Positions 24,596 to 64,000 of a stretch of DNA of 64,000 nt are shown in pieces. The notes below the pieces were generated by a model. It saw only the letters and a list, made by a program, of their open reading frames with translations. It made no database searches and was not told the origin of the DNA. Source of the stretch: a virus. The DNA is taken from positions 8,190 through 72,189 of IMG/VR virus record IMGVR_UViG_3300042893_001103; one strand, written 5' to 3'. The position numbers were made by a program, and so were the translations under genes. Numbering within the stretch: the first letter of the stretch is position 1; every line of letters starts with the position of its first letter.

Positions 24596-27500
24596 ATGAG
24601 TCAGCAAGATATTCAATTTAAAGCCATTCCAGGCCAATTCAACATTGACGAGGCCCAAGGCGTCGTTGAGTGTTTCGTCGCCGGCATCGGCAATAAGGAC
24701 TCAGTAGGAGACGTTCTAATTACTGGAGCATTCACCAAAAGCCTTACCCGCCGCAAGCCCCGTGTTGTTTGGGGACACAACTGGAACGACCCAATCGGTA
24801 AAGTTCTTGAGATTTACGAAGTTGCCCCAGGGGACAGAAGACTTCCAACAAAGATGCTCAACGCCGGTATTGGTGGCTTGTACGCAAAGGTTCAATTCAA
24901 TCTCAACTCAGAAAAAGGTCGGGAAGCCTTCGCCAACGTCGCGTTCTTCGGACAAGAACAAGAGTGGTCAATCGGATACAAAACGCTTGATTCAATTTTT
25001 GACCCGAACATCCAAGCAAACATTCTAAAAGAAGTTGAACTTTACGAAGTATCGCCAGTACTACATGGTGCCAATCAATTGACTGGAACAATTTCTGTAA
25101 AGTCTGACGAAACAGCCGAAAAGCACATGCCCGGAATGATGATGCCTCACCATACTGGAATGAACCAAGGTCCAAAAATTATCGTCGTTAGACAGGGTGA
25201 TGATGACGACGATGACGACGACAAACCAATTTTCTCAGAGGGTCTTGCTCGGGCGCTTGGTGACAATGAAAAAGAAAGATTGACACGCGAACTACAAAGC
25301 AGAAGCGGTTCCTCAATTCAACTAGTTTCCGCTACTGAAAGCACGGCAAAGTTCAGAAGAATGACCTCTGATGGTCGTTCTGTAATGTACAGAATCGGAT
25401 ATCACACTCCAGACAATTACGTTACCTTTATGTTTGGCAAGCCTGAACTGGCAGACGGACAACAACCGAGTGGTTCACGTACGGTTGTTCCGTCACAGAT
25501 GCCTTCAATGCCAATGCAGGTCAAGCCTGGCGTGCCAACTGGCGCAACGAACTTCGTTGTTAGTCCTGAATACGTAATGCCTAAAGGTGAGGATTATGAA
25601 AAATCAGCCTTTGACGAAGAACTAGAAAATCTTGCTCAGATTCTTGACGAGACATTTGATGTAAAAGTTGGAAGAACGCTTAGTTCCCGCAATATGTCAA
25701 AACTAAAAACAGTCCTAGAGACACTTCAAGACATTGTTTCATCAGCGGAAAAAGATGTTGAATCAAAAAGTGATTACCTAATTCCTGTCAAACTGGAAAA
25801 CGCGTTTGAGACCAAGCAATTACTTGACCCAATTTTTGATTATCACAGGGTTGAATCTCACGTGACGGAAGATGGCATTGTCATCACAACCGAAGTAACA
25901 CAAGAATTTATAGAGGCTATTGGCGTAGCCGAAAAAGCCCTGGGGCGAACGCTAAGCGGGGGCCTGGGAAAATTAGGCCGCGCCGGTAGGGGCGCGGTAA
26001 ACTTTGACCCAAAAGCATGGGACGGTGACGGAGACGGAATCGTACAAGAAGGAACGCCGTACTCACGTCCTGCAATTCCTGGAGTAAACGACCGTGCATC
26101 TGGTGGAAGAGTTGACACCAATGCTGCAACCCGCGCATGGCAAAATCAACGCAGAAGCGGAATGGCTTCCCGTATGGGTAGCGATGACAACGCAGATGAA
26201 TACGACGAAGCAATGGGACCACCAATGCGACGCCCAAGCAGAGGTATGGCTGACGACCCAGTTGGTGACGCTGCTTCAGAAAACCTTGATAGAGACAGAA
26301 ACGCTGGCGCTGTAAGAAGTGGACTTAGTTCAAGCACTGCAGGTGTTGTCAAAATTGATATTCCTCAAATTGACAATGCCATAGAAGAATTGGCAGCCAA
26401 AGACATAGGAATGTCTCTTAAAAGATTCAGAGAACTAACAGACGAGGGTCGTCTTCCGGAACGTTATCAAAAAGCATTTTCGGACAGAGTTAAAGTTCTT
26501 AATGATATTTTTTCTAATTTAAGCAAAGAAAAACTAGACGAAAGTCCTGGAAAAGTGCTTTCAGAAATTAGAAAAAAATTAGTTGACACTCTTTCTTCTG
26601 ACGACAAAGAAGGCGACGGTTTCATTAGCCAATTTAACGATAGAAGAGAAATACAAAACTTTATAGACGGAATTGAAGAAGTTCTTAACTTGGCTTTTGA
26701 CGACTATGTTGACAGGGCTAGAGAAAATGGAACAGGCGAAGAAGCGGACGACCTTCAGGCCGAGTTGTTGTCTGACTTCACACAATCTTTAAAAAAAATA
26801 TCCGAAAAATCAAAGAACCTTTTTGATGCAAGAACAAAATCCTTCCGTGGAACAGAACCAGCAAAAGCCAAAAAGGAATCAGAATCAGAAAAAGAAAGAT
26901 TATTTGACTTGCTCAAAAATCTTCTTGACATGGAAGAACTTGCTAGGTACCTAGACAGCACAGAGGGCGTTGTTCCTACGGATGCATTTATTGACAGAAT
27001 CAGAAAGGGAAACATAAGTGACGAAGACCTAGTACAACTAAATGGCTTTTTTGAAGATGCACTAGAAAATATTATTACCCTTGACCCAAGCCTTGACCCA
27101 GAAAAATTAGCAAAAGAATTTTCTGATGCAATTAGAGAAGGTGCAAAAAATGATGAATCAGGAGTAATTCAGCGTATTGCAAAAGAACTGGGTGACGATG
27201 GCGTCAGTGAGGACCTCGTTCAATACCTCAAGGATGGTAGAGAAGGTTCTCCATTCCTTCCGAATAGAGGTAAAAAGGAAAGAGAAATACTTCGCGGCTT
27301 TGCTTCCAGAACCGGCGGTGGTGACTCAAAAGGTAAAAAATTTGATGTTAGGGATAGAAAACAAAGAGAAGACAAAATCGTTGAAATGTACAACGACGGT
27401 GAAACTGTTGGCGACATATCTCGCTTTTTAAGTTCCCAGCCTGGTTCAAATGGTATTTTTACGGAACTTGCTAACATTCGCAATGTTATAGATAAAAGAA

Positions 27501-30500
27501 GAAAAGCGGGAGACGTTCCTCTTCGTTCCGTCAATCCAAACAAGGAAAGACAAGCAACAACTAACCTACGTAATGAAATCATTAGACTTTATAACGATAA
27601 TGATGAATTGTCGTATCGTGAAATAGCAAAACTTACTGGTACAACCCAAGCCAATGTTACAAACACCCTTTCTTCAATGCGTAGAGGAAATGATTCTCGC
27701 ATTAGAAGCGGGGACAAAGTAAGAGGCTTTTCGTCTTCTACCGGTAGTGATGGAGAGAGTGGACTTGGTTCCTCATCTGACAAGCGCGAAATGGACATGA
27801 CGCTTGCTGAATATGCAGAACTAAATGAAGTTCTTAAAAAATATATGGATGAAAGCCAACTAGACGGCATCGGTGCCGACGAAGACATGCAAGTCATCCA
27901 GAACATTCTGGACAAACTTGATGAGAGTTCAGCCGCAAACGACTCAATCCCTCTTACGGATAAAGAAATTGACGACTACATGGACACTCTCACAAGAATG
28001 AGAGACAATGGTCCGGTTGAAGATTCAGACGATAAAGAATCAATAGATAAATTGATTGACTCTTTGAAGAAAACAAAAGACTCAAAAGATGGAACCTACG
28101 AATCAGATGCTCTTCAGCAGGCTGGAACCAGGCTTTCCCGTCCTTCTCGTGATGGACAAGGTGGCGGTCGTGGAAGAACAGCAAAACGCCCTCGCGGCTT
28201 TAAGAGTTCCAATGGAACAATAAACCCACACAAAAAACTTGATATAGAACTAGATGATTCTGAAATCGGCGAACTTCGTGACGAACTTCAGGGTTTTATG
28301 AAAATGACAGACAACCCTGCTCCGCTCAGGGCCATTGCTGAAAAACTTGAAAAAGCCACAAACGGCAAATTTTCAGTTGATAAAGACGAATACGAAGCAG
28401 TCATAAAAGAAATAGACAAAATGCGAACCGACAGAGGAGTGGTCACGTCTGATGTGGTTGGGGTTCTTGAGCAAGCAGCAGAATCTCAAAAAGGAAAATA
28501 CTCCAGTATTGATGTTCGTGGTGGACGAGGCTTTGAATCATCTACTGGTGGTGGCAAAAACAACGGAGCACCATCCGACATTCCTGAGACAATGCAAAAG
28601 CAACTCATCATGTGGGGTAGACAGCAGGGCGGACTCAGACTTGTCCAAGAAGCAATTCAGAGGTTTGACAAAGACAAGGGAACAATGCCGGCGTCGTACT
28701 GGAAGAGATTGCGCACCATGTATGAAAACATGGGGCCAGGTTCCGCTAGTGGTGCTGCTCGCAGAACTGGACGTAGGGGCATATTCGGTCGCGGAAAAGA
28801 TACAGACACTTCACCACGTGGTAGTGCTGGATTTATAATTGACGACAGACCAGTACCTAAAGGCTTGCTTGATAACACAATGTCAAACAACCCGATTGTT
28901 ACAGATGACTTCGTAGACACCAATTCTGGCCCCATGGGTGGCTCACAGGGTGGCGGCGTATTCAAGGACCCCAAGACTGGTAAGGAATATTACATCAAGC
29001 CGCCAAAGTCACAAACTCATGCAGAAAACGAATCACTAATGTCTCGTTTCTATGAAAGATTAGGTATTCCTGCTGGAAAAGTAAAAGTAGGAACCTACAA
29101 AGGTCGTCCAAAAATTGTTAGCGAAATGGTTCCAGGGGCAAAACAGGTTGACCATGAATCCGAAATAAAGAACTCAGCATGGAAGAAGGCAGTTCAAGAC
29201 ACTTTTGTGGCTAATGCATGGCTTGCAAACTGGGACGCTGTTTCAAACTCGGGAAACACCATTAAGGGCGGAGACGGTAAAGCGTACGTCATTGATGTTG
29301 GTGGTGCTGGTCTTTTCCGAGCAAGAGGAGAAGCAAAGGGCTCGGCGTTCGGTCCTATCGTCGGGGAAATGGAATCCTTGAGAGACCCAAATCAGTCGGG
29401 CGCTAGACGTGGTGTTGCATACTGGGGAGACATTCCTCCAGCAGAAATTGCTCGTCAGGTAAAAGCAATTGGAGCAGTATCAGATTCTGAAATCAAAGAA
29501 ATGGTTGATGCTGTAATTTCCGACAAAGGTGAAGCAAAGAAACTTTCTGACACCCTTATTGCGCGACGTGACTATCTGGTACAAAACTGGTCCACTGGCA
29601 AAAATAGTGGAACTGGCAGAAGAGGTCGTACTGGCTTTTCTTCGGAAACCGATAATTACGAAAGAAGAAACAAGAGGCCTGGCGTAGCGCCAGCAATGAG
29701 ACCTGCCGACTTTGAAGTACGTCCTCGTGACGGCGAGCCTACGGGTGTTGGCAAGGGTGGAGTAATGGGAACAAAGCCCGACCCCAAGTTCACTGGAGAC
29801 TCTTTTGACCAAGCCAAACCAGAAGAATGGGAAAAACTTACAATTGATGAAAAATGGGGTTGGATGCTTGGGGAAGGAAACCCTGAAAAGGGTGGAACGA
29901 TGTCCCCTGCCGCCTATCAGGGTGCAATGAGGAAACTTGGCGAAGAAGAAGCCAGGGAAGAAACAAAGCGCATGACTCCAGAAGAACGAAGAAAATCCCG
30001 TTCAGAATCAAGACAAAGCGCCATGGATGAACGTTCTGACAACGAGAAAGAAAGACTCACTTCCGAAAGAGAAGAGCGTCAAAAAGAAGCACAAGAATCA
30101 TCTAAGCGAGTTAAGGAAGAAGCAACTGCGGAGCAAGCGAAAGCCAAGAGACAGGCGCGTCTTGATGCTTTCAATGAATGGATTGATGACTCAATTCGTG
30201 AACTTTCAGGAATGGAATACGACGAAACAGACATCAATCCTGATTCTGAAGACATCTGGGACACTGTTTCCACAATCCTTGGCGTTGAAGACATCACTCC
30301 AAAGTCGCTAAAAGAAGCAATTGACGAACTTTCATCATATATTGACATTACTTCAGGAGAAAATGCTTACGAAAAGAAGAGTGTCGCTCGTGCTAACGCA
30401 CTATTGAAGAAACTCTTAAAGATGCAATCAGAGTATTCGGAAGACAAGTGGTTTAACGACAGAGAGGGTGGAGTGTCTGGATTCCAGTCTTCAACTGGCG

Positions 30501-31120
30501 ACAAACCTCGCCCTCCAAGAGACGGTAGACCGGCACGTCCTGGAACACCAGAAACGCCTCAATCAAATGCCAAACGCGAAGGGGAAATTAAAAAACTATC
30601 TACGCTGATTGAGCAGGTTGTTGCAGAACTTGATGAAAAACGTCAAAACCCTTCACCAAAAAAGGGAAGAATGGGATTCTCCTCATCAACCGGCAAAACG
30701 ATGATTACTGACGAAGCAACCTTTTTTAAGGACATTGAGAATTCTCTTGCAAAAGAGATTAGAGCCGCGCAAAAGGCTAGAAACACTAAAGCAGCATCAG
30801 GATTAACAAAACTTCAAGAGATTATAAAAAGAAGTGAAGCCTCAAAAACAGGCGACAGAAGAACAAACGTCGGAAGTATCTACATGACGATGGATGAAGT
30901 TGACTTAATTCTTGACGGTCTTCAATTTGCCCTTGACCAACAGGTACAGGCTGGTGGAGATAAAAGAATTGGCTGGTACTCAAGACTAATTGAAAAAGTT
31001 GCCGGCGCAGCCATGTCTACATTTATTGATAAAAGTACATCAGAAATTGGTTCAACAAGAAGAACAGTCACAAACAAAGACGGCGTGAAGAAAAAAATCA
31101 ATATTGTCCCAGAAGCATAA
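24596..31120 (+). CDS. HK97-family prohead protease fused to a ~2000-aa multidomain extension (DGDGDG tag, HTH modules, HipA/PI3-4-kinase-like domain)
   Basis: N-terminal GNKDSVGD...GAF...WGHNW..PIG...WSIGY...ELYEVSPVLHGAN; HTH LSYREIAKLTG; kinase-like GGSQGG..YYIK...ENE....FY..LG...WLANWD...N....IDVG. Confidence 0.9.
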   Translation: MSQQDIQFKAIPGQFNIDEAQGVVECFVAGIGNKDSVGDVLITGAFTKSLTRRKPRVVWGHNWNDPIGKVLEIYEVAPGDRRLPTKMLNAGIGGLYAKVQFNLNSEKGREAFANVAFFGQEQEWSIGYKTLDSIFDPNIQANILKEVELYEVSPVLHGANQLTGTISVKSDETAEKHMPGMMMPHHTGMNQGPKIIVVRQGDDDDDDDDKPIFSEGLARALGDNEKERLTRELQSRSGSSIQLVSATESTAKFRRMTSDGRSVMYRIGYHTPDNYVTFMFGKPELADGQQPSGSRTVVPSQMPSMPMQVKPGVPTGATNFVVSPEYVMPKGEDYEKSAFDEELENLAQILDETFDVKVGRTLSSRNMSKLKTVLETLQDIVSSAEKDVESKSDYLIPVKLENAFETKQLLDPIFDYHRVESHVTEDGIVITTEVTQEFIEAIGVAEKALGRTLSGGLGKLGRAGRGAVNFDPKAWDGDGDGIVQEGTPYSRPAIPGVNDRASGGRVDTNAATRAWQNQRRSGMASRMGSDDNADEYDEAMGPPMRRPSRGMADDPVGDAASENLDRDRNAGAVRSGLSSSTAGVVKIDIPQIDNAIEELAAKDIGMSLKRFRELTDEGRLPERYQKAFSDRVKVLNDIFSNLSKEKLDESPGKVLSEIRKKLVDTLSSDDKEGDGFISQFNDRREIQNFIDGIEEVLNLAFDDYVDRARENGTGEEADDLQAELLSDFTQSLKKISEKSKNLFDARTKSFRGTEPAKAKKESESEKERLFDLLKNLLDMEELARYLDSTEGVVPTDAFIDRIRKGNISDEDLVQLNGFFEDALENIITLDPSLDPEKLAKEFSDAIREGAKNDESGVIQRIAKELGDDGVSEDLVQYLKDGREGSPFLPNRGKKEREILRGFASRTGGGDSKGKKFDVRDRKQREDKIVEMYNDGETVGDISRFLSSQPGSNGIFTELANIRNVIDKRRKAGDVPLRSVNPNKERQATTNLRNEIIRLYNDNDELSYREIAKLTGTTQANVTNTLSSMRRGNDSRIRSGDKVRGFSSSTGSDGESGLGSSSDKREMDMTLAEYAELNEVLKKYMDESQLDGIGADEDMQVIQNILDKLDESSAANDSIPLTDKEIDDYMDTLTRMRDNGPVEDSDDKESIDKLIDSLKKTKDSKDGTYESDALQQAGTRLSRPSRDGQGGGRGRTAKRPRGFKSSNGTINPHKKLDIELDDSEIGELRDELQGFMKMTDNPAPLRAIAEKLEKATNGKFSVDKDEYEAVIKEIDKMRTDRGVVTSDVVGVLEQAAESQKGKYSSIDVRGGRGFESSTGGGKNNGAPSDIPETMQKQLIMWGRQQGGLRLVQEAIQRFDKDKGTMPASYWKRLRTMYENMGPGSASGAARRTGRRGIFGRGKDTDTSPRGSAGFIIDDRPVPKGLLDNTMSNNPIVTDDFVDTNSGPMGGSQGGGVFKDPKTGKEYYIKPPKSQTHAENESLMSRFYERLGIPAGKVKVGTYKGRPKIVSEMVPGAKQVDHESEIKNSAWKKAVQDTFVANAWLANWDAVSNSGNTIKGGDGKAYVIDVGGAGLFRARGEAKGSAFGPIVGEMESLRDPNQSGARRGVAYWGDIPPAEIARQVKAIGAVSDSEIKEMVDAVISDKGEAKKLSDTLIARRDYLVQNWSTGKNSGTGRRGRTGFSSETDNYERRNKRPGVAPAMRPADFEVRPRDGEPTGVGKGGVMGTKPDPKFTGDSFDQAKPEEWEKLTIDEKWGWMLGEGNPEKGGTMSPAAYQGAMRKLGEEEAREETKRMTPEERRKSRSESRQSAMDERSDNEKERLTSEREERQKEAQESSKRVKEEATAEQAKAKRQARLDAFNEWIDDSIRELSGMEYDETDINPDSEDIWDTVSTILGVEDITPKSLKEAIDELSSYIDITSGENAYEKKSVARANALLKKLLKMQSEYSEDKWFNDREGGVSGFQSSTGDKPRPPRDGRPARPGTPETPQSNAKREGEIKKLSTLIEQVVAELDEKRQNPSPKKGRMGFSSSTGKTMITDEATFFKDIENSLAKEIRAAQKARNTKAASGLTKLQEIIKRSEASKTGDRRTNVGSIYMTMDEVDLILDGLQFALDQQVQAGGDKRIGWYSRLIEKVAGAAMSTFIDKSTSEIGSTRRTVTNKDGVKKKINIVPEA

Positions 31121-31229
31121 ATAGTATGCGTTCTCGCTCAGAGGCGCATGCTAAGTTATACTTTTATAAACTATTCATAATGTGATATTGACACTCGTGT
31201 CTTTACTCGCTAAAAAACAGGAGTTACCA

Positions 31230-32606
31230 ATGAGCGAAAAAGTTGAAGTCAGTGTTGATGCGGACGGCAATGTTCTTAAGTGTGCCAAGGGCGCAAATGT
31301 TGCCGACTGCGGGTTTACCCCAGGTGCAAAAGTGTGCGGTAAGTGCGGAGCAATGCCTATCCAGATGAAGATGGTTCCAGTCACCGATGATGACTATGAA
31401 GTCAAGGGTGGAGACAAATGGGACGATAGTGAAATGTTTGACGCTATGAAAAAGCGTCAAAAGGGCACGGGCATGGGAATGCCTGGCGAAGAAGATGATG
31501 ACGAAGAGATGGATGACGAAGACGAGATGGCGTCAATGCCGTCATCCAAGAAGAAAATGTCTCTTGAAATTGAAGAAGACGACGAAGAAGAATACGACGA
31601 AGACGACGAAGAAGAAGACGACGAAGACGCCGAGATGAAAATGTACGACGGAGAAGTTGACCTAGAAGCAGCAAGAAAGAAACGTCTTGCCAACATGGGT
31701 GAAAAAGTCGCAGAACTTGGAAGAAACGCATACATGTGTGCTGTTGAAAGAAAAGTTTACCCAGGTGGTTCAGGCGTCTGTGACGATTGTCCTGGTGGAT
31801 GCTTGCCAGAGCGCGGAATGCCAGGTCTTCTTTCTGTTGAAGGAATTGCCGAAGAAATGTTTAAGGGCAAGGTTCTTGACTCTGGATATTCTTCAGATGC
31901 AGACATGTTCGTGGTTGACATTCAATCAAAGAGCGGCCGTGCGGTTGAAGTCTTTATTGATGGTACAACTGCAGAAGTTCTCGGTTTCCACAAACTTGAT
32001 GACAATGCCTTTGAGCAGAAGTCAGCACTTGATTCAATGATGGTAATTGACTTCCACGAAGCAGCAGAGATTGCAGTTAAGTCCATTCAGGGTGACGTTG
32101 TTGCTGTTGAGCCAGACATCTTTGAAGGCTTTGATGCATACGCAGTTGAAATTGAAGGAATTGACGGAAAGTCTTACGACGTATTCGTTTCACTTGACGG
32201 TGAAGTTCTTGGATACGACAAGTATGAGCCAGAAGAAGCAGAAGCCATTGAAGCAGAAGCCGCAGAGATTGCATTAAAGCGTGCATTCAATGAAGACATG
32301 CGCACACAAATGGCAGAAGAAGGAAAAGCACTTCCAGACGGTTCCTTTCCTATTTCTAACGTAGAAGACCTCAAGAACGCAATCAGCGCATACGGTCGTG
32401 CAAAAGACAAAGAAGCAGCAAAGAATCACATTATGAAGCAAGCCAAGGCTATGGGTCAGGAAAAACTTATCCCCGCCAACTGGGTAACCGGTGGAGCAAA
32501 ACTTGTTGAAGAAAAATCCGGAGAAGTTGACTCTGACCTTATGGCATCGCTTGTTGAGTTTGAACTCCTTGAGGCCGAGGTCAAAGACTCAGAACCAACA
32601 ATCTAG
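31230..32606 (+). CDS. Acidic head-associated protein with Cys clusters, tandem PepSY-like domains and a C-terminal DUF6582-like domain
   Basis: AGGAG SD before ATG 31230; AEEMFKGKVL...EVFIDGTTAEVLG and AAEIAVKSIQGDVVAVE...YAVEI...DVFVSLDGEVLG; ALPDGSFPISNVEDLKNAISAYGRA. Confidence 0.7.
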   Translation: MSEKVEVSVDADGNVLKCAKGANVADCGFTPGAKVCGKCGAMPIQMKMVPVTDDDYEVKGGDKWDDSEMFDAMKKRQKGTGMGMPGEEDDDEEMDDEDEMASMPSSKKKMSLEIEEDDEEEYDEDDEEEDDEDAEMKMYDGEVDLEAARKKRLANMGEKVAELGRNAYMCAVERKVYPGGSGVCDDCPGGCLPERGMPGLLSVEGIAEEMFKGKVLDSGYSSDADMFVVDIQSKSGRAVEVFIDGTTAEVLGFHKLDDNAFEQKSALDSMMVIDFHEAAEIAVKSIQGDVVAVEPDIFEGFDAYAVEIEGIDGKSYDVFVSLDGEVLGYDKYEPEEAEAIEAEAAEIALKRAFNEDMRTQMAEEGKALPDGSFPISNVEDLKNAISAYGRAKDKEAAKNHIMKQAKAMGQEKLIPANWVTGGAKLVEEKSGEVDSDLMASLVEFELLEAEVKDSEPTI

Positions 32607-35600: not shown

Positions 35601-38286
35601 TCCTCAAGAACTTGCGGCACTATCTGAAGCGGTCACAAATCCACCAAGAATAATTTCATCTTTAAGTCCGCAAAACGTTTCTGAACTAACTTCAACTCTG
35701 GAAGATATTGAAAATGTTAGACAAGTTTTTGAACGTAATAACTTGACACCACCAACTACAGTTGCTGACGATGAACTTAAAAATGCAGCGCCTGTTATGT
35801 CGGGATTGGATAAATCAATTATCCCAGAAGACATGGTCGTTGAACTTGAGATTGATATGCCGGAGGATACCTCACCTGGCTCAATACATGAAATTCCTCA
35901 AATATCATCTGCTCAATTAATAACAGATTCAAACACGGAAGAAGTTAACATTCCAAGTTCAGGTTTTTCTTCAACAACTGGCGCTAGAACTAAGGCCGGA
36001 ATTGCTGGAAGACTTATCGCAAGCCAGAGAACTAGAAAGTTGCTTGAAAAAGCAGGAATTGATGCAGAAAGAACAGACGTTGTTCAGTTAATGAGCGAAG
36101 TTGCTATTGGTTTTTCTATTGGAGGGCCGTACGGTGCCCTCTTGCCAATAGCACGACGCGGAAGTCGTGACGCTGCAGAGCAAGCACTAAGAATGATGGT
36201 TGAACGCGGATGGATTGAGCAAGACATTGCTGACAAAATTGAAAAATACGGTCTTGACAGGATTGCTACAGAAGGTTTACCAGACGAAATACTTAATTTA
36301 GCAGAATCAGCCAAAGGTAAACTTTTGACAGACGATTCAAAACGTAAGGCTCTTGAATTTGGTTCAGTCCTACAGGATAGAAGTATTGAATTATCCGACG
36401 TCGCTCGTGAGAAAGCATCAGCAATGGCTGCCTCCGGAAAAGAAAAGGCTCGTGAACTTACTGGTGCTGGAAGAGAAACGGCAAGAAGATTAAGAAATCG
36501 TCTTGGTGGTGGTTCCGAAGAAATAGACGCAACTGACGCATTCTCGCTCCCTCCGTCTGGTAGTCCTTTTGATATACCAGCACCAGATATTGACCCGTTT
36601 AAGTCCGCATTTGTTGACATTGAATTCAAGCAACTCGGAACTTCCCTTATGGAACAAAAGCAGGGAAAGAAAACTAAAGTTAGAATTGCTGTACCTGCTG
36701 GCTCAAAAGGAAAAATTGAAGCAGGAAAAACAAAAGCAAGCAATATGATTCTTCCCCCAGGAAAAGTAAAATTTACTGGAGTTGGCGAAGACGGAGTTCC
36801 TGAAGCAGAGATTTTTGACCAAATGTCCGCTGAACAATACATGAAAAACGTTGAAAAGATATCTCTAGAAGTTTCCTCATCTTCCAATAAACCAAGTATC
36901 AAAAAATCAGCAAAATTGAGAGCAGACACTGCTAAAAAAATGCGCCAAGAAATGGTTGCCAAGTCAGGAACACCCCAGTCAATGTCTGGTATTTCAAAAA
37001 TTGTATTTGATAAATCAAACTCAATAATGGAAAGAGGCGAAGCGGCTGGAATTAATTTCTTTACTTTAGAGAAGATAAAAAATAACGATACGGATATTGA
37101 CGTATCGGAGTATGTGCGCCTCTACCAAGAAAAACTCATATCAACAATTAATAATTACAGCAAATCTTTACCAACCCGTCTTTTTGATGACGGAATAAGT
37201 GCGGATACCAAAAAGTTTATTTATGGAACTCCTATTAAAGAAGTGGTAAAAGCAGTTAACGAAGTAGCCGTGTTGATTCATAATGACATAGACAGAAGAG
37301 CACGTGTTTCAATGTCTAAATCGTCATTAGAACAATTTGTTGGTTCTGGAAAAATTGCAAACATTGATGTTGATAGTGAATCTTTAAAGATTTTAAAAAC
37401 CAAACGAGACGCAATGCTTGGAAATGCCCCCGGGATTAAAGAATTTTCATTTACGCCTATTGAGTTGATACACGGAATACTTATTGAAAAAGTTGAAGAA
37501 AATCTTTACAAAAACGGAACACACGTTGGCTCTGAAGAATTTACAGATTACGGAAGAGGCATAGAATTGGTGCTTCGCGCAGAAAATTCTCCAAGAATTG
37601 GATACGGAAGAAAAGAGTCATACAAAAATGGTGGAATTTTTGTACAGATAAACGAAGAAGACGAACAAATTATTCAAGCAGCAATTTTTGGACAAATGTT
37701 TATGTCAACAAGTGGTGCAGAAGAATATCTAGCGGAGATTATTGAAGCAAGCCTTTCAAAAGACTATTCAAAACTTATAAAGAAAAACGACGAAGATATA
37801 TTTGAGGCGTTTATAGTTGGTGAAATATCACTCAACGATGTTGAGCACATTAAAATACCTTTGTCAATATTCAACATCAGAAAGAAAAGAGTCTCCAAGA
37901 GCAGTATGATTGGTGGGGCAGACTCAATAAATATGATATTTATGAACAGAAGCGTTCCAAAAGAAAAAATCAAAGACTTCTTTGACGGTGAAGGAACCAT
38001 AGGTGGAGGGTATACGCCTAAGCATCTGTCTTATTTAAACGAACTAGAGGCTGCAGAAGAATTCAAAGAAAATCTAATATCTCTTGGCATTGATGAAGTG
38101 TTATTTACGAATAAAGATGGAATTGACATCATGAGCGAAGATACATGGAGGACCCCTCCTCCAACAAAGAAAAAGGGCAAGGACGCACTAAGAGAGATAG
38201 CAAGACGAGAAGTTATGTCAATTATTGACAAAATTGCTCCTGCACCTAAAAAAGCAGAACCCAAAAAGGAAACTGTAAAGAAATGA
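32623..38286 (+). CDS. Giant multidomain protein: RCPPG..RFT motif, HExxH zincin, degenerate ART-like and DUF3626-like domains
   Basis: About 1890 aa; SAHERAHWG at 34333; RIAVPAGSKG...MILPPG; EAFIVGEISLNDVEHI. Confidence 0.75.
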   Translation: MTGVDINKIRHYAPGFNNRTTRLDADMSALLFKAGTRIISSSERLIADVSIKAAMGAGAPAEDKKRGLQSAGKSKYININGLVYDPEAKKQEGQFFKPWVTERERINAMRSNDPVPNWGWVDRNPENQNRLQEPKNAKGKVTRYPVNPKTGEPMKNYGVEQEFKSLGPTLAERNPGGKLLARTAKSFGVVVDALGKFRCPPGTPAANRFTNFRGEGCFDISVAQVRNLIGSLTQSMQAPQSGSQTISSLTSAGVSIAEIRKSFKENGIAGLASLAKRVGIAHVGDKWNDMSYVSQIAVRLREVSGLTMGAQSRMEKIAQKKADTINFLAEYYGITEPNEYKKIAQIIEKMSADPDSPLDPNQFKLLFRGGSLESHEEWAVEAIIKTHIGAIGSKLGIDATDALEAYEEAKRNGEITPLTRFVDAALDRERDFRLGAFEDMLVAAYEQPHTFTLPGGKKRIYTAGPIPDGPDGEKYNVPRWDRYDLNGYAEPEFILINSGPAILGFRGGVPPSGYMDLYEATGGDIDDQWRAVASEMDKDERLRAYSALWSVDLAATEGRGWRDFGAQTSAHERAHWGQMDAIFQYHAETSPGVAMKDLNNRELMELTNEFLTKATPEILRDVFGADIEDLIDKRFDALAGAYSQKAQQEALEELTGGGSREDFNYSRSIALLETLSELKANKSVGLIGDDPELDAILDKMTPLPPMSPGSISPSGGIVPSPPGGSPRPVRPSLPSSAPSLPANAGKVVTVIPGRGSGRGGRGARGPVDPFERDRYGKVPTMIKEGRFTLEDIDEFLYGEDGKGGLRQTLAQIANMKTKKNGYSEPALVERKRLLNELINTMGISFPELEAIALKAKRGEALTPEEKSKLVNAVSHLRNGANEFKAKSVEARKKFEDYRSVDVSRATGDGSEYDDKDTNSLNLERIQAEIEMYESLFQRVGRGIAPAVHDILTISENGPYPPRLTARKPGPQPLVGIEIDGADGIAIKQASKLNPQELAALSEAVTNPPRIISSLSPQNVSELTSTLEDIENVRQVFERNNLTPPTTVADDELKNAAPVMSGLDKSIIPEDMVVELEIDMPEDTSPGSIHEIPQISSAQLITDSNTEEVNIPSSGFSSTTGARTKAGIAGRLIASQRTRKLLEKAGIDAERTDVVQLMSEVAIGFSIGGPYGALLPIARRGSRDAAEQALRMMVERGWIEQDIADKIEKYGLDRIATEGLPDEILNLAESAKGKLLTDDSKRKALEFGSVLQDRSIELSDVAREKASAMAASGKEKARELTGAGRETARRLRNRLGGGSEEIDATDAFSLPPSGSPFDIPAPDIDPFKSAFVDIEFKQLGTSLMEQKQGKKTKVRIAVPAGSKGKIEAGKTKASNMILPPGKVKFTGVGEDGVPEAEIFDQMSAEQYMKNVEKISLEVSSSSNKPSIKKSAKLRADTAKKMRQEMVAKSGTPQSMSGISKIVFDKSNSIMERGEAAGINFFTLEKIKNNDTDIDVSEYVRLYQEKLISTINNYSKSLPTRLFDDGISADTKKFIYGTPIKEVVKAVNEVAVLIHNDIDRRARVSMSKSSLEQFVGSGKIANIDVDSESLKILKTKRDAMLGNAPGIKEFSFTPIELIHGILIEKVEENLYKNGTHVGSEEFTDYGRGIELVLRAENSPRIGYGRKESYKNGGIFVQINEEDEQIIQAAIFGQMFMSTSGAEEYLAEIIEASLSKDYSKLIKKNDEDIFEAFIVGEISLNDVEHIKIPLSIFNIRKKRVSKSSMIGGADSINMIFMNRSVPKEKIKDFFDGEGTIGGGYTPKHLSYLNELEAAEEFKENLISLGIDEVLFTNKDGIDIMSEDTWRTPPPTKKKGKDALREIARREVMSIIDKIAPAPKKAEPKKETVKK

Positions 38287-38693: not shown

Positions 38694-39289
38694 ACAGCAG
38701 AGACATTAAGGCAGACCCCCTTGGTGGGATAATCCCGCAGGAACTGGTTACTGGAGACCTACTCAAAGGTCGCGGACCAAGAAGAGGAAATCTTGAGCGC
38801 CTTCTTCGCTATTGGCGGCCAATCATGAAAAAACCAGGCGGCTTTAGGCGTTGCAAAGTCATCCTTGCCGACCATCCAGAGTTGTACCCGTTGAACAATA
38901 TCTGTGCTTGGTTGCATCACGAAACTACTGGTCTTTGGCCAAACGAGGGATGTCATCACCCTGGCATGAAAAACTGCCGCAAGAAAATTAAAAAAGGAAT
39001 AAACGGTACTCTTTTCTCTGACTCTCAATTTGATAACAGAGTAAGGAAACTTGCTGGAAATAGCAAGAAATCTTTACAACAAGAAACCGAACGATACGAA
39101 GACTCGGTAGTAACTAATGCCGACGAAAAACACTCAGTCTTGGTGATGCGTGACTTTTCTGAGATGGAACCAGATTTCTGTAAAACCATGTCCGACGATT
39201 CAAGTTGGGAAATAGAAGGCGAAGACGAAATGGGGAATACCAAGTCCGTTCCCTACGATTCTGAACAGGATGACGACGTTGAGCAATAG
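38690..39289 (+). CDS. Head-associated protein with an LxRYW..PGxFxRC..CAxLH..TGxWP domain
   Basis: The motif resembles a domain I recall in actinophage capsid-maturation/MuF proteins. Confidence 0.6.
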   Translation: MNSRDIKADPLGGIIPQELVTGDLLKGRGPRRGNLERLLRYWRPIMKKPGGFRRCKVILADHPELYPLNNICAWLHHETTGLWPNEGCHHPGMKNCRKKIKKGINGTLFSDSQFDNRVRKLAGNSKKSLQQETERYEDSVVTNADEKHSVLVMRDFSEMEPDFCKTMSDDSSWEIEGEDEMGNTKSVPYDSEQDDDVEQ

Positions 39290-48835: not shown

Positions 48836-49384
48836 ATGAAGGAAAACGATGCGTTTAAATTTATTGGAGACATGCCATCTTTCAATGAACTTCTCGGTGA
48901 TGTCTCGTCCCTAACCCCAGAAGACTGGTTGAAATACGTGCAACGTAAAAAAATTGGCGGTGCAGCAGGGGGTAATACTGACACCATCCCATTGGTCTAT
49001 GACGTGATGCAAAAACTCAACTCGGACGTAGTGCACGAACATTACAGACAATTTAGTAAGTATCTAGATGAAGTCGTTCTTGCCACGATGGAAACAATTG
49101 GAGAAGTAAAAATTCAACAATCAATACTGGCAAGACTTAGGGCAAAAACAACTATTCCCAAACATAAAGATGTCGGAAATCCATTAACCGCAAAAATCCA
49201 TAGCCAGACTCACAGAATACACGTTCCAGTTATAACCAATGAAAATTGCATATTTACCATTGGTGATGAATCAAAGAACCTAAAGCCTGGCCAAATATGG
49301 ATTGTAGACAACGTAGGAAGACACCATGGTGTCAAGAATAGTGGAGACGAAGACCGAGTGCACCTAATCATAGACGCCATCTGA
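48836..49384 (+). CDS. Asp/Asn beta-hydroxylase-like 2OG-Fe(II) oxygenase
   Basis: IPKHKD...RIHVPVITN...G.IW...HGVKN...RVHLIID. Confidence 0.85.
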   Translation: MKENDAFKFIGDMPSFNELLGDVSSLTPEDWLKYVQRKKIGGAAGGNTDTIPLVYDVMQKLNSDVVHEHYRQFSKYLDEVVLATMETIGEVKIQQSILARLRAKTTIPKHKDVGNPLTAKIHSQTHRIHVPVITNENCIFTIGDESKNLKPGQIWIVDNVGRHHGVKNSGDEDRVHLIIDAI

Positions 49385-59048: not shown

Positions 59049-59077
59049 CGAACATCTGTACGACGAACACATGTACT
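59049..59077. promoter_or_regulatory. Tandem Gram-positive-type SOS-box-like sites
   Basis: CGAAC-ATCT-GTACG and CGAAC-ACAT-GTACT versus consensus CGAAC-N4-GTTCG. Confidence 0.5.
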
Positions 59078-59318: not shown

Positions 59319-62300
59319 ATGCCCTTCTCTTATGACATAGAACCAAACGACTCGTCTCGTCTAAGACGTCACATGTCAAGAGTAAAGAGTGATGACGCTC
59401 AAAGAATAGAAGTCAAAGCACTAGGCATGAACCTAGGTCAACTCGCAAGAGGCGCACAAGTCTTTGACCCTAACGCATACGATGGTGATGGTGATGGACT
59501 AGTACAAGACAGCACACCCTTTGAAAGACCGGCGGTGTTGTCTAACATTGCCTCCATAGCAAGAGGTCTCTCAAGCACCACGGGTGGCTACGGGTCATAC
59601 ACACCAGCAGGTTCTTGGACAGTAGGCCTCACCAATGAAGAGGTGGCAGAGAGGGCAATACCTGACAACCCTGCTGTTTTCATTGGCATGCTCAACGCTC
59701 AAGGCCCCATGGGTAGTACAGATGTGTACCTACTAGAGGCTCTCAACGATGTTATCTTTGACCCTGAGGGCGTTGCTAAAATACGTCAATCACTAATTAA
59801 AACATTAGATGATAGACCTGCATTACGTTCTGCCTTTGACAGGTTTGGTTGTCCACCCATAGGTCTACACCCCAAGGGCAAGCCATACAAAGGTCAAGCA
59901 CATGGTCATTACGCTATCTTCATTAACGAAGCAGCCATAGATGAGGGCGCAGTATCACGCTGGCTAGGTAAAACACCGGCACTAGCAAAACTATTCAATG
60001 AATCCATGATAGCGCCCAAGATAAAGGGCGTGAAGCGAGCATTCTCAGGAGACAACGCAGAGGACACCATCACTCATGAGTGGGGTCACTACTTGAACTA
60101 CCTAGTAGCAAACATCGCACCAGACGCACAACTGCGTGAACTCGCAGCGGCAATGGCATCAGACTCGTGGGGTTATGCACAGTGGAGAAGAACAGCATTC
60201 ACAGCGTTACCCAAAGGGGCAGAAAGATTATTCTCCTACTTTGGCGAGATTACAAGCAGTGAAAACTGGAACAAGAAACATGAACTGCCCGATGAGGATG
60301 TTCCGTTCATCAAGAGCGTGTATGGAACCACATCACCAGTTGAGTTCTTTGCCGAATCAGTGCAAGCATACTTCTCCCCCAACCCTAAAGATAGTGAACT
60401 TCTCAACTACGAAGGAACAGTGATTGTTGAGCAAATGCTTGGCATTAGACAAGTATCTCGTAGTGGATTTTCGTCACAAACAAGCGGTCTCAAAAGCAGT
60501 ACGGGTAACTCCATGCGTGGTAAGACGCCACAAGAAATTGCAGACATTGTAGTACCTAAGACCAAAGAGGAAGCAATCGCATTAGCCGACGCACATAACG
60601 CTTTGCTTGTTGACCCAGGTGGTACTCCATACACCGCATCAGAACCAAACACACTGAAGTTGATTACCCCCAAGGGCATTGACGGTATGGACTTCTCACC
60701 AGAAGCAGTGTCTCGTATGAAAGAGATGATAGTAGAAGCATTATCAAACAACCCCAACTTCTATGAAGCAGTACAAAGATTCGGCATGCCACCTGTCATG
60801 ACAACCAAACCAGGGGAAAGACTAGATGGCTCCTACGCTGTTGCGGGTGTAGAAGGTTTTCCTGCTATCACTATTGACTCTACTGTTAGGGAAGAAGCCC
60901 TAGTCAATGGGTTCCCTAATCGCATGTGGGAAGATGAACCATTCATCAAGGGAACATCACAATTCCTAATGGACCCCACGAGTGATGGGATGTTCGTTCA
61001 TGAATGGGGTCATTATCTGAATCGTTTAGTGATGAACGTACACCCAGATGAAGACATGAAAGACTTAGCACGCTTTTGGTGGCTAGATACTTGGGACCTA
61101 GATGAATACATACCACGTATTTCAAAACTTCTACGCAGATTCATAAAGCCAGACGACAGAGTGTCAGGTAGATACTCTTACGCTCAGAGATTCGGTAAAG
61201 CAGTAAAAAATAATAAGTCAGTCAACTTCACGGGTTACCCCCATGTAAAGACTCAGTATGGGCAGTCACAACCATCAGAAGCGTTTGCCGAAGCAGTGAC
61301 AGCAGTGCTCTCTAGCGACATAGACGAGAAGGATATGGTCAGTCCTGAACTACGCAAGGACGTTCTTGACATACTCGGTTTCTCGCCATCAGCAAAAGAA
61401 GTAGATAGAGCGGGTAGTTCAGAAGGAAGAAGTGCTGGATTCGCCTCAAAGACAGTAACAAGAGGTCTTGGCGTAAGGCTTATTACCAAGTCCGACCCGT
61501 TCACTCCACTCAATGGTCCTGACTGGCTAAAAGATGCTACGGATGAAGAAATAGCAGAGGCTGTCGTACCTACAAACATGGATGACTCCATAGCGCTAAC
61601 CGTGATGAACACGGCGTACGGTGCAGACCCAGCAAATTTTCCCACAGAAGCAACAGTAATTGCTGAACTAGCGGAAAGATTGCTATTCAAAGCAGAATGC
61701 ACAGACAGTACGGGTGCCCTAATTCGTGATGCAAACGGAAACGCTGCTTTTGTGTTTGATGTACCGATTGACTTCACTCCAGCAGGTAGACAAAAAGCCA
61801 AAGACATGCTCAGACGAATGATGGCAGAATCACCAGAGTTTGCATGGATGATTAGACGCTTCGGGTGTCCACCGGTATTGATTATGGATGAACAAAAACT
61901 TACCGACCTAAGAAACCAGGTTCAGGCGCTGCGTGATTCAGGAATGGACATACAGTTGCCTCCCCATCTTGATAGTGACTCTATTGGTGGTTTTTCAATA
62001 GCAACTCTTGGTATTACGCTTAGAACAAAACCAGGCAGAGATGACTTGCCGATGGGCTTCAATAGAGGGATAGCAGCGAGAAGAAGAACGGGAAGAAAAA
62101 TAACTAACCCAGACGGCACCATAGAGGACGAAACAGAACACTGGATGAACAACTTCGGTATTTCTCTTCCTGATGTCGGTATTCATGAATGGGGTCACTG
62201 GTTTTATTCAACCGTTCTAGGAAACAAATTACTATACAAGACGTATGGAATTAGAGGAAAAATGGGAGACAGACAATCTCGTCTTTCGTACCTATTTCCT

Positions 62301-64000
62301 GGTGTTCCTACTGCGGACGTTGAAAAAATGACAAAAGAATTCCTTGATGCTTTTGACGCAGAGGGTTTTATTCCTTTCAACACCATGAGTGAAATGCATA
62401 TTGACTCAATAGCCAAAGCGGCATACAGAAGCATAGGTAACAACTTAAGAAACAGACCACTACCAGAACAACTGGCTGCTGCTCAAAGGTTCACCGACTT
62501 AGTACAAGACTATTTAAATAACGTAGTTAACTCATCACGCGGGTGGTCTCCATCACGCGCACAAGAGTTTGCTGACCAAATAGCGCTTGAGTTTCCGTAC
62601 CTAGTAAATGACATGCCTCCACTAATAGCGGGAACCTATGCAACAGCAACTCGTCAAGAACTGTGGGCAGAGGCAGTATTACTATTCTCTTCACCTGACT
62701 CAAAGTTGAAAGCCAAGTACCTAACGCCAGAGATAGAAGCGTTTATTGCTTACGCTTTTGGGTTGAAGCCAGACAGAGACCCCAATACTCCATATCAAAA
62801 ACCTTGGGCATCTCGCAGTGGCTTCTCTTCTTCTTCACGGGTAAGAAGACTTCATGCAGCAGAGGACAGTATTCCCGACAGAGTCTCTGACAAAGATGAC
62901 GGGTTAGCAAGCAGAACTACTGGAGCATCAACTGCAAAGATGAGTCGTGAAGCCTCTAGTACTTCACGTTTCACTGTTGGTGACTACGACTTTGACATAA
63001 CCGACGAAGACCTATCTACATACGATTGGGATACCGCCTACGACCAGTGGACAACATGGTCGGGTAACTGGCGTATGCGTCACTTATCCTCAGCAATGAT
63101 GGGTATAGAACAGCAACCAACCAAGGGTGGCGAAGAGTCATTATCAACCGTCCACGAGATAATGCGTTCGGGTGAACTGTCAAACGCACCAGACCACGTC
63201 AAAGAATCGGTTCGTGAATCTCTAATCAACACTCACAAGACTATGGAAAAGATATCCATGGGTGAGACTATTAGTGATAGACCCCTCTACAGAGGCTTGG
63301 GTTCTGTTCCTGACGATTCAGAGATACTCATGGCAGAACAAGGCGAGACGATAACATTCCCACTTAGTGCTTTCACTCCAGACAGAAGCCTTGCTACAAC
63401 GTTTGCTGACATGAATGCCGAGAGTGACAAAAAAGTAATCCTCCAACTCAGAGATGGTGCCCATGTAGCATCTAGCGATTACACGACACAAATAAGAGAC
63501 CTAGAAAGCGACTGGATAGAAGTACCTATTGAATCTGTTACTCAGGGAGAATTTACTGTCGTCTCCAAGAGCGAGAAAGACGGGTACACAGTAGTAGAAC
63601 TGTCTCATGTAAATACGTTTGACCCATTAGCAGGAAGAATGATTCCCACAAACGCTCGTGAAGGTTTTGCTTCTTCCAGTATGAGGCCAGAGCGACGAGT
63701 GTCAGATAGTGCCATCCGTACGCTGACGGACAATATGGACTTCCTTCGTGACAATCCACCAATCGGCAAGGGTGGCAAAGACCTAGATGACCAGTGGGCA
63801 CAGAAGACAATAGAGAAACTACGCAGTGGGGAGATATCCCAAGAAGACGCATTTGACCTAATGAATGTCGTCATTGAGATACTCAACAACGGGTTCAACG
63901 AAGACCCAAGCCAGAAAGAAAACCCAGACGGCAAACTTCTTGCTTACCAAAAACTATCCAAGCGTCTACGCAGGCTCGCTGTCGGCGCTATGGACAAAGA
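59319..64000 (+). CDS. Giant polyvalent protein (>1560 aa, runs off the window): DGDGDG tag, three tandem zincin modules, R-S-E-type ADP-ribosyltransferase-like module
   Basis: Hand-translated with no stop to 64000: EVKALG...FDPNAYDGDGDGLVQDSTPFERP; HEWGH at 60075, 60999 and 62184, each followed by Y....E.[FW]AE; PLYRGL...SAFT...IESVTQGEF near 63280-63560; TACAAT 6 nt upstream of the ATG. Confidence 0.9.
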   Translation, partial: MPFSYDIEPNDSSRLRRHMSRVKSDDAQRIEVKALGMNLGQLARGAQVFDPNAYDGDGDGLVQDSTPFERPAVLSNIASIARGLSSTTGGYGSYTPAGSWTVGLTNEEVAERAIPDNPAVFIGMLNAQGPMGSTDVYLLEALNDVIFDPEGVAKIRQSLIKTLDDRPALRSAFDRFGCPPIGLHPKGKPYKGQAHGHYAIFINEAAIDEGAVSRWLGKTPALAKLFNESMIAPKIKGVKRAFSGDNAEDTITHEWGHYLNYLVANIAPDAQLRELAAAMASDSWGYAQWRRTAFTALPKGAERLFSYFGEITSSENWNKKHELPDEDVPFIKSVYGTTSPVEFFAESVQAYFSPNPKDSELLNYEGTVIVEQMLGIRQVSRSGFSSQTSGLKSSTGNSMRGKTPQEIADIVVPKTKEEAIALADAHNALLVDPGGTPYTASEPNTLKLITPKGIDGMDFSPEAVSRMKEMIVEALSNNPNFYEAVQRFGMPPVMTTKPGERLDGSYAVAGVEGFPAITIDSTVREEALVNGFPNRMWEDEPFIKGTSQFLMDPTSDGMFVHEWGHYLNRLVMNVHPDEDMKDLARFWWLDTWDLDEYIPRISKLLRRFIKPDDRVSGRYSYAQRFGKAVKNNKSVNFTGYPHVKTQYGQSQPSEAFAEAVTAVLSSDIDEKDMVSPELRKDVLDILGFSPSAKEVDRAGSSEGRSAGFASKTVTRGLGVRLITKSDPFTPLNGPDWLKDATDEEIAEAVVPTNMDDSIALTVMNTAYGADPANFPTEATVIAELAERLLFKAECTDSTGALIRDANGNAAFVFDVPIDFTPAGRQKAKDMLRRMMAESPEFAWMIRRFGCPPVLIMDEQKLTDLRNQVQALRDSGMDIQLPPHLDSDSIGGFSIATLGITLRTKPGRDDLPMGFNRGIAARRRTGRKITNPDGTIEDETEHWMNNFGISLPDVGIHEWGHWFYSTVLGNKLLYKTYGIRGKMGDRQSRLSYLFPGVPTADVEKMTKEFLDAFDAEGFIPFNTMSEMHIDSIAKAAYRSIGNNLRNRPLPEQLAAAQRFTDLVQDYLNNVVNSSRGWSPSRAQEFADQIALEFPYLVNDMPPLIAGTYATATRQELWAEAVLLFSSPDSKLKAKYLTPEIEAFIAYAFGLKPDRDPNTPYQKPWASRSGFSSSSRVRRLHAAEDSIPDRVSDKDDGLASRTTGASTAKMSREASSTSRFTVGDYDFDITDEDLSTYDWDTAYDQWTTWSGNWRMRHLSSAMMGIEQQPTKGGEESLSTVHEIMRSGELSNAPDHVKESVRESLINTHKTMEKISMGETISDRPLYRGLGSVPDDSEILMAEQGETITFPLSAFTPDRSLATTFADMNAESDKKVILQLRDGAHVASSDYTTQIRDLESDWIEVPIESVTQGEFTVVSKSEKDGYTVVELSHVNTFDPLAGRMIPTNAREGFASSSMRPERRVSDSAIRTLTDNMDFLRDNPPIGKGGKDLDDQWAQKTIEKLRSGEISQEDAFDLMNVVIEILNNGFNEDPSQKENPDGKLLAYQKLSKRLRRLAVGAMDK

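Follow-up and report, generated by a model that had tools for sequence, protein, structure and literature searches.

What is the function of a short peptide motif that recurs between the modules of several giant phage proteins, and what might read it? The question is raised by a 64,000-nucleotide stretch of DNA (the window), which corresponds to positions 8,190 to 72,189 of IMG/VR virus record IMGVR_UViG_3300042893_001103 and forms the larger part of a 72,189-nucleotide phage contig whose completeness is rated at 48%. Its genes are those of a contractile-tailed phage, and those of the head module are ordered terminase, portal, protease and then capsid protein. The interval between portal and capsid genes (~23 kb) codes for giant proteins, the first of which, protein A, opens with an S78 (HK97-type) prohead protease domain. 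A preliminary description had listed 22 copies of a G-[FLM]-x-S-[S/R/T/K/E/Q] linker in protein A and in further giants, here called proteins B to E, and had read them as sites for a second protease or for some other recognition event.

We favor, with a probability of roughly 55%, the explanation that the motif is read by an endopeptidase that would cut ejected polyproteins into separate effectors. The motif itself would be a short linear recognition site, with the clade-wide form x-[F/L/M, rarely S]-x-S-x. That recognition amounts to cleavage, by which enzyme and at what time, is what we infer from the evidence that follows.

A peptide motif between the modules of giant proteins

All 22 listed peptides translate exactly as had been stated. 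When the motif is expressed as a loose regular expression, G[FLM]xS[SRTKEQ], the five giant proteins A-E contain 24 matches, including two absent from the earlier list (GFISQ at 26618, whose context is atypical, and GLGSS at 27761); a tight version adds [TS] at +5. In these cargo proteins (7513 amino acids, aa), the 24 loose matches compare with a mean of 2.56 and a maximum of 10 in 2000 within-protein shuffles, and the 19 tight matches with 0.35 expected (maximum, 3). The expectation is unchanged when shuffling is confined to 40-aa blocks, and both kinds of shuffle rule out a compositional artefact of linkers rich in Ser and Gly. The enrichment also stands out against the rest of the proteome, a comparison that had been proposed previously: the remaining 59 open reading frames (ORFs; 15868 aa) have 10 loose matches, with 4.9 expected, and two tight matches, with 0.73 expected.

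The copies share an extended consensus, R(-2)-[SR](-1)-G-[FLM]-[AS]-S-[SR]-[TS]-G. Arg, which had been noted as a frequent preceding residue, occupies -2 in 10 of the 25 copies and -1 in six. The codons vary: the invariant Ser is specified by TCN in 19 cases and by AGY in five, and Leu by five different codons. Selection therefore acts on the peptide and not on the DNA, and the width of this variation rules out a DNA repeat or recombination signal. Tandem copies are present in the window and also in G001, a complete relative (148,355 bp, with terminal repeats). In orthologues of protein E, which are 78% identical overall, conservation by alignment column was uninformative near the copies.

Several kinds of evidence agree, indirectly, with the earlier proposal that the copies sit at domain boundaries. 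BLASTP comparisons of 14 giants in three groups gave 324 internal block ends, of which 104 are no more than 5 aa from a motif copy (random mean, 16; maximum, 32; 2000 trials) and 154 are within 10 aa (30.7 at random), although BLAST ends are mutually dependent and a conserved motif can itself attract them, which counts against the junction reading. Homology blocks shared by the window and locus L001, by the window and L027, and by L066 and L070 begin and end at copies, and L086 differs from L084 by an inserted 558 aa with copies 2354 and 2919 (numbered by residue) at its edges. Homologues of protein E, whose full forms have 2193 (95% identical), 2658 and 3222 aa, differ by whole cassettes with motif copies at their edges.

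Recognizable domains fall between copies. The zeta toxin domain of protein D (residues 383-524) is bracketed by copies 319 and 604, as had been noticed; in homologues, the N- and C-terminal domains of a UvrD helicase (1244-1885) lie between copies 1204 and 1911, ArdC-N plus MPTase-PolyVal (1043-1301) between copies 1022 and 1498, and a pentapeptide array (1117-1262) between copies 1094 and 1358. None of 20 motif copies lies inside a Pfam envelope. Zincin modules like those of protein E are parted elsewhere by the variant of their own lineage (GFASR in G003, GLASS in G006), and stand-alone zincin homologues (363-376 aa) stop just where the linker would start. The zincin is such a stand-alone protein in G001 and G002; its gene in G001 is found past that for ribonucleotide reductase, as is the gene for protein E in the window. 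The hydrophobic fraction just upstream of copies is 0.17, versus a background of 0.36, which marks short hydrophilic stretches. The copies thus bracket whole predicted functional units rather than single folds, and, as in polyprotein junctions, the putative sites are found between and not within autonomous units.

It could be argued that nothing reads the motif and that it is only a favored flexible linker that survives through cassette exchange. Homology blocks that begin or end at copies, and whole cassettes gained or lost between copies, would fit a passive junction of this kind. However, the DNA at the copies is not conserved, as the Ser and Leu codons demonstrate, and hence provides no recombination sequence; we regard this explanation as highly improbable.

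Proteins A, C, D and E have a tag of ~50-55 aa in common. It consists of K|[AG][LI]G, a basic Gly-rich stretch, and then FDPxA[WFY]-DGD[GE]DG-x-[VI]Q[ED][GS]T-x-[FY]-x-RP, and is kept with variations in relatives, the most distant lineages having DRNxNG or similar. The DGDGDG core fits the DxDxDG pattern, which we take to be that of a calcium loop, and the K|xLG portion presumably resembles the HK97 capsid cleavage site, K|SLG. Between the Lys of the tag and the first motif copy downstream, the distance is 50-124 residues. The giants are probably carried in the virion and injected with the DNA; this view is based on the placement of their genes between those of the portal and major capsid protein, on the prohead-protease fusion, and on the common tag. 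Protein E lies apart from the portal-capsid region. A gene for an aspartyl/asparaginyl beta-hydroxylase (48836-49381; PF05118, E 1.5e-14), without a BLAST counterpart in G001, directly follows the major capsid gene, and the Asp-rich tag is an obvious candidate substrate for its product.

Disparate domains, at least two per polypeptide, are combined in proteins A (S78 protease and modules), D (DUF3721 and zeta toxin) and E (three zincins and a module resembling ADP-ribosyltransferases, ARTs). Homologues carry UvrD, ArdC-N with MPTase-PolyVal, sigma-70 r4, pentapeptide and RNase_T domains. For the modules of protein E, single-sequence searches of Pfam, PHROGs and PDB found nothing significant, and the ART-like module has no Pfam ART match.

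Lineage variants and the tape-measure protein

The motif extends well beyond the window. Eighty related loci, gathered by means of the portal protein, encode 42 different giants that are fused to S78 and have 1200 aa or more. The core [FLM][SA]S[GRST] is more numerous in 37 of these than in any of 300 shuffles. Database homologues of the N-terminus of protein A form at least 351 clusters at E <= 1e-10, and 120 among the matches listed were scored. Among these, the core is enriched in 52 of the 80 that have at least 1300 aa and in five of the 40 shorter ones.

The form of the motif depends on the lineage. The window lineage has GF[SA]S[SR]TG, and the other variants are RGMASR (L017), GFASRG (L066, L070, L071), GFAS[TS]S (L012, L016), GLAS[ST] (L027), R[FL]SSG (L024, L028, L033, L045 and others), SLSSG (L069, L076, L078) and GLSSG (L060). 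In L056 (12117-22066), the S78 protease is a separate 491-aa gene, and the next giant opens directly with the tag and has a junction motif, G-S-[KR]-S-[ST]-T, in eight copies. The bulky hydrophobic residue after Gly, which the preliminary description had emphasized, is therefore not universal; the residue kept in all lineage variants seen is the Ser at +3. The first copy past the tag has the same alignment position in all lineages.

The complete relative G001 provides a more distant comparison. Its variant, [RGSK][FLM]SSG, occurs 21 times in three proteins (0.19 by shuffles), with 12 copies in a 3963-aa protease giant, seven in a 3490-aa second giant and two in the 1703-aa tape-measure protein; none was counted in the remaining 196 ORFs (37,306 aa; 0.68 expected). 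Past the N-terminal regions, almost no homologous modules are common to the giants of G001 and those of the window, so the junction motif persists through turnover of the cargo.

The constancy of this Ser could also mean that the motif is a modification acceptor, in which the Ser is phosphorylated or glycosylated, or a nearby Arg ADP-ribosylated, by a phage enzyme to mark ejected proteins. An upstream Arg is frequent not only in the window but also in G001, where it occupies -1 in 20 of 21 copies, and the cargo includes kinase-fold and ART-like modules. On the other hand, we found no modifying enzyme that the lineages have in common, the zeta toxin and ART modules of the window are without a BLAST counterpart in G001, and modification does not by itself account for placement at module junctions. 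We consider a modification acceptor quite unlikely.

A separate observation concerns a 668-aa head-module protein (39270-41273) that is 46% identical to its counterpart in G001 and belongs to no Pfam or PHROGs family. Its atlas leads are weak (<= 0.86), one being to clusters partly annotated as PI3/PI4-kinase. It was considered as a conserved kinase that reads the Ser and was rejected, given these scores and because it does not meaningfully resemble a protein A module that looks kinase-like by eye.

The preliminary description held that copies occur only downstream of the tag. This is true of 24 of 24 copies in head proteins (chance under uniform placement, 0.016), but a perfect GFASSTGGG is present in the tape-measure protein, which has no DGDGDG tag, and the motif thus extends beyond the tagged head cargo. 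In relatives, the orthologous protein has the variant of its own lineage. Near residue 40, where the window has GFASS, G001 has KLSSG, G002 has RLSSG, and G006 has a near match, GLATT; the tape-measure protein of G004 has no motif near this residue. In the middle of the protein, the variants are RFSSG (G001), RLSSG (G002), GMSSR (G004), GLASS (G006), and ALSSG and SLSSG (G010), and the lineage of L056 has GSKSTT at residue 625 (G008, the same genome as L056). When the tape-measure proteins were scored class by class, only the class of their own lineage was found, in seven of seven genomes (5/5, then 2/2). The tape-measure gene is unlinked to those of the giants, being located in the tail module on the opposite strand.

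Each genome therefore has one consensus across its substrates, and this consensus shifts in concert between lineages. Because the variants are lineage-specific and are shared by an unlinked tape-measure gene, the pattern points to a factor that reads the motif in trans; neither a passive linker nor duplication within a gene can give a tape-measure protein that covaries with lineage class. A passive junction, in particular, would not keep an invariant Ser and one lineage consensus that is shared with the tape-measure gene in seven of seven genomes. Judged from these sequences, a trans-acting, lineage-specific recognition factor must be involved.

Such a factor need not be a protease. The motif could instead be a docking site for a host or phage factor, for example a cytoplasmic chaperone or ATPase that ratchets unfolded ejected chains through the tail channel, with the tape measure ahead of the cargo, or an organizer that acts before assembly. 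All motif carriers, that is, the head-module giants and the tape measure, are expected to leave the virion by way of the tail, the copies are in short hydrophilic linkers, some are in tandem, and lineage variants could track different hosts. However, chaperones that recognize DnaK-type motifs would be poorly served by only one hydrophobic residue, or by none at all, as in the GSKSTT lineage. Docking also leaves unexplained the exact bracketing of units and the stand-alone homologues that end at the junction, and binding in the capsid interior is hard to square with copies in a tail protein. We judge docking to be unlikely.

Candidate readers of the motif

An endopeptidase is favored over these alternatives because unit junctions, a single consensus within each genome, backup copies in tandem and proteases embedded in the giants together constitute polyprotein anatomy, and because short junction rules have precedent in phage virion proteins. 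The precursors would enter the prohead either through fusion to the S78 protease and scaffold or by means of the K|xLG-DGDGDG tag. A lineage-specific trans factor, likely an endopeptidase, would coevolve with the motif. Cuts at the motif would free separate proteins, namely kinase-like, zeta toxin, zincin and ART units in the window and helicase, ArdC, sigma-like and pentapeptide units in relatives. Cutting would either occur after ejection in the next host, by a co-injected protease, or be the work of a soluble enzyme. Since the tape-measure protein shares the code, the cut would most plausibly be made after ejection or in the cytoplasm rather than inside the sealed head.

A bolder version, which we offer tentatively and regard as rather unlikely, is that the giants and the tape measure are ejected as chains that a co-injected protease would cut no earlier than in the new host, where at least a dozen effectors would be set free together as polyprotein weaponry. 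The code would coevolve in trans with the protease and would also be a universal splice point for swapping cassettes.

The S78 prohead protease is one candidate reader. All relatives that were examined have it, and the largest substrate is itself a fusion to this protease. The assignment to S78 is made by a family profile above the curated cut-off, the domain is highly conserved in relatives, and the N-terminus of protein A also matches the PHROG head maturation protease family (phrog_80, E 1.9e-27). Eight of eight capsid proteins have Ser or Thr directly before a conserved [IV]G[DE]xF, in an alignment made without G009, in which the longest ORF of the locus is not a capsid protein. Eight residues farther upstream, the LSSG lineages have an L-S-S core at the capsid maturation boundary in two of three genomes; because of this, the S78 protease stays a candidate, and the second protease invoked earlier is not required.

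In the window, the region that precedes [ST][IV]G[DE]xF in the capsid protein is an N-terminal stretch of ~95 aa (47404-47700). The residues upstream of the boundary vary by lineage and are partly like the junction motif of the same genome (QLSSR in G001, SLSSR in G007).

The position of a cut may be considered in terms of the termini that it would create. Under the N-degron rule, cutting before F or L would produce an N-degron; a cut after Ser would leave S, G, R or T as the new N-terminus. The herpesvirus protease obeys the rule V/L/I-x-A|S, and T4 gp21 the rule L/I-x-E. The core of the motif, Phi-x-S, has the same form as related head-protease rules, such as A-x-E (PMC10052503).

A second candidate is the zincin, which would be similar to lethal factor or MtfA. 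Its modules contain HExxH and a downstream YG-x(4)-E-x-FAE-A segment, and residues H183, E184, H187, E276 and E280, as expected of gluzincin ligands, are invariant in 14 of 14 aligned modules. A PDB search with a profile of the 14 modules gave lethal factor chains as the best match (2l0r_A, E 0.0031, ~30 residues), which is marginal; Peptidase_M90 matches a module faintly, below its cut-off (E 0.32), and a single-sequence PDB search with a module found nothing. The zincin is present in six of eight clade records examined, including the window, and its modules are themselves flanked by the motif. Zincin-type enzymes prefer a hydrophobic residue at P1'; in the motif, basic residues are upstream, and the hydrophobic residue would sit at P1'. 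A host protease is a third candidate.

Two observations concern the zincin from other directions. A weak match to the zincin profile (E 2e-5) was found in Gordonia phage GMA6 (L082, 12494-12874), at the C-terminus of the 1010-aa Orf14, which is encoded between the portal and capsid genes. In the window, a 474-aa head-module protein (31182-32603), of which residues 141-467 are 68% identical to the G001 counterpart, is strongly acidic in its N-terminal half and contains two repeats that weakly match PepSY, at an E value of 0.0019 that does not reach the cut-off. PepSY domains are inhibitors of M4 metallopeptidases, and this protein might be a putative zincin inhibitor that silences the zincin until ejection.

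Several points weigh against cleavage at the motif or against one of these enzymes. The core is not enriched in five of the 42 giants (L010, L038, L054, L057, L059) or in 28 of the 80 long database homologues among the matches listed. At the capsid boundary of the other five genomes, there are near matches at best. A prohead protease that stays in the head should not come into contact with the tape-measure protein, and the K|xLG sites are closer than the motif to the HK97 capsid site. The zincin was not found in G004 and G005, which are fragments (54% and 34% complete), and Orf14 and the other head-module proteins checked in GMA6 have no junction motif, despite the weak zincin match. The hydrophobic P1' preference fails in the GSKSTT lineage, and the argument from P1' is weakened in general because the Ser at +3, not the hydrophobic residue, is kept in every variant.

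In sum, the preliminary description correctly recognized a nonrandom linker element that is selected at the protein level and brackets units of head-module proteins. Its restriction to tagged cargo, its universal hydrophobic residue and its requirement for a second protease are not sustained.

Genomic context and relation to known systems

Coordinates of the features discussed are provided in Table 1. No nucleotide matches to the window were found among phage records. By portal protein, the nearest cultured phages are Brevibacterium phage Cantare and Gordonia phage GMA6, both only ~40% identical; the head-module proteins of these two phages that were checked are without the motif and without the tag. 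Genes for WhiB are present in four of five related records (none is present in the window fragment), and therefore the hosts of the clade, whose members are uncultured, are Actinobacteria, those of the window phage being assigned to freshwater. Between the tail and replication genes of the window (14975-17077), a PAPS-reductase-like gene (phrog_2302, E 8.6e-74) is near a ParB-like nuclease or partition gene, with a small ORF between them. Both are kept in G001, and their pairing suggests a DNA-modification module.

Table 1. Positions in the window of the giant proteins, tags, motif copies and structural genes
Feature	Position	Strand	Remarks
Tape-measure-like tail protein, 1573 aa	4360-9078	-	downstream of sheath and tube genes; carries motif
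Near match SFSSAT(GG), tape-measure residue 625	7189-7206	-	about where relatives have own variant
GFASS(TGGG), tape-measure residue 42	8941-8955	-	one of two tight non-cargo matches; relatives have own variants at orthologous position
Tail sheath	10355-11827	-	
Large terminase	20839-22179	-	
Portal	22433-24484		
Protein A, 2174 aa	24596-31120	+	N-terminal S78 protease, scaffold-like region, tag, ~1700 aa of motif-separated modules; 11 regex matches
S78 (HK97-type) prohead protease domain	24662-25102	+	PF04586, 44.4 bits (cut-off 21), residues 23-169
Tag of A: K447|ALG ... FDPKAWDGDGDGIVQEGTPYSRP	25934-26095	+	conserved in relatives
GMASR, A 522	26159-26173	+	first copy past tag; position conserved between lineages
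GLSSS(T), A 576	26321-26335	+	end of homology block shared with L001
GFISQ, A 675	26618-26632	+	regex match; probably not a true copy
GFASR(T), A 901	27296-27310	+	
GFSSS(T), A 1044	27725-27739	+	start of homology block shared with L001
GLGSS, A 1056	27761-27775	+	tandem partner of copy 1044; homology block with L027 begins here
GFKSS, A 1201	28196-28210	+	
GFESS(T), A 1312	28529-28543	+	
GFSSE(T), A 1680	29633-29647	+	
GFQSS(T), A 1962	30479-30493	+	
GFSSS(T), A 2027	30674-30688	+	
Protein B, 1887 aa	32623-38286	+	no family match; one motif copy; N-terminal 256 aa conserved in G001
GFSST(T), B 1114	35962-35976	+	
Protein C, 1095 aa	41273-44560	+	tag (DGDGDG at residue 256), three motif copies
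Tag of C: K227|GIG ... FDPKAWDGDGDGVVQEGTPFERP	41951-42112	+	
GLASR(T), C 351	42323-42337	+	
GMRSR, C 448	42614-42628	+	
GLASR(S), C 464	42662-42676	+	
Protein D, 791 aa	44889-47264	+	DUF3721, tag, zeta-toxin kinase module, C-terminal module
Tag of D: K225|ALG ... FDPDAFDGDEDGIIQDGTAFERP	45561-45704	+	
GLASS, D 319	45843-45857	+	upstream of zeta toxin module
Zeta_toxin domain, D 383-524	46035-46460	+	PF06414, 34.3 bits (cut-off 22.3)
GFESS, D 604	46698-46712	+	downstream of zeta toxin module
Major capsid protein	47404-48762		
Protein E, at least 1566 aa	59301-63998	+	tag, three zincin modules, ART-like module, more; contig ends inside E
Tag of E: K39|ALG ... FDPNAYDGDGDGLVQDSTPFERP	59415-59555	+	
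GLSST(T), E 89	59565-59579	+	
Zincin module 1	59580-60464	+	HEWGH at residue 259, then EFFAE
GFSSQ(T), E 389	60465-60479	+	
GLKSS(T), E 396	60486-60500	+	tandem partner
Zincin module 2	60501-61436	+	HEWGH at residue 567; homologous to stand-alone 363-aa G001 protein
GFASK(T), E 713	61437-61451	+	
Zincin module 3	61452-62819	+	HEWGH at residue 962
GFSSS(S), E 1174	62820-62834	+	
GLASR(T), E 1201	62901-62915	+	
ART-like module, lead only	62916-63662	+	atlas feature score 0.95, 172 features shared with ADPrib_exo_Tox clusters
GFASS(S), E 1455	63663-63677	+	

In the literature on phage polyproteins and prohead protease sites, which was also searched for literal motif strings (supplements were outside the scope), we found no description of the motif. 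What is new here is an explicit, lineage-variable junction motif that is found in multi-effector proteins of probable virion delivery and is shared with the tape-measure protein. Individual elements nonetheless resemble known systems. The zincin modules share HExxH with anthrax lethal factor and MtfA (M34, M90), but the scores are marginal and below Pfam cut-offs, and the rest of the module is unrelated. Like HK97 gp4, protein A begins with an S78 protease, and the head genes have the same order of terminase, portal, protease and capsid; in protein A, unlike in gp4, the protease is followed in the same polypeptide by ~2000 aa of cargo modules. The HK97 capsid cut, K|SLG, resembles the K|xLG of the tag and not the junction motif.

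The closest parallel in a tail protein is the tail-associated lysin Tal of TP901-1 and Tuc2009, in which a glycine-rich junction motif before the catalytic domain is proteolytically processed (PMC11409707). Copies in the tape-measure protein are similarly followed by Gly-rich runs, GFASSTGGGAGGG in the window and RFSSGATGGGAGGGG in G001. Unlike the motif described here, the Tal motif is a single site in one protein of unrelated phages; ours is not itself Gly-rich and is shared with head cargo.

Head processing in T4-like and phiKZ-like phages offers a second parallel. In SPN3US, gp245 cuts ejection proteins after A-x-E, and all cuts except self-cleavage remove N-terminal propeptides, as set out in PMC10052503. 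The resemblance lies in a degenerate rule of the form residue-x-residue that applies to many packaged proteins, sometimes at several sites in each. The differences from SPN3US, as far as it is described there, are that 7 to 16 putative sites per protein part whole units in the present phages, that the candidate P1 residue is Ser rather than Glu, and that a tail protein is involved as well.

The nearest relation overall is to the polyvalent proteins, for which Iyer, Burroughs, Anand, de Souza and Aravind in 2017 predicted processing by embedded metallopeptidases (PMC5512222). As in that paper, disparate effector domains are joined in one giant, the genes belong to virion modules, and delivery with the DNA is expected. 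Unlike the arrangement reported there, in which assemblin-like peptidases are C-terminal, the S78 protease is N-terminal here; moreover, the available text names no cleavage or linker motif, and the term "linker" is absent from it. Processing was thus predicted in 2017 with no site defined in that text, and the motif supplies explicit, mutable candidate sites in hundreds of proteins. Because the sites are explicit, and because lineage variants shared with an unlinked tail gene constitute a natural experiment, the processing hypothesis is directly testable with recombinant fragments. If it is true, giants that resist annotation could be separated by eye into functional proteins, the shuffling of effector cassettes would be accounted for, and a polyprotein logic of expression would be added to those known in tailed phages.

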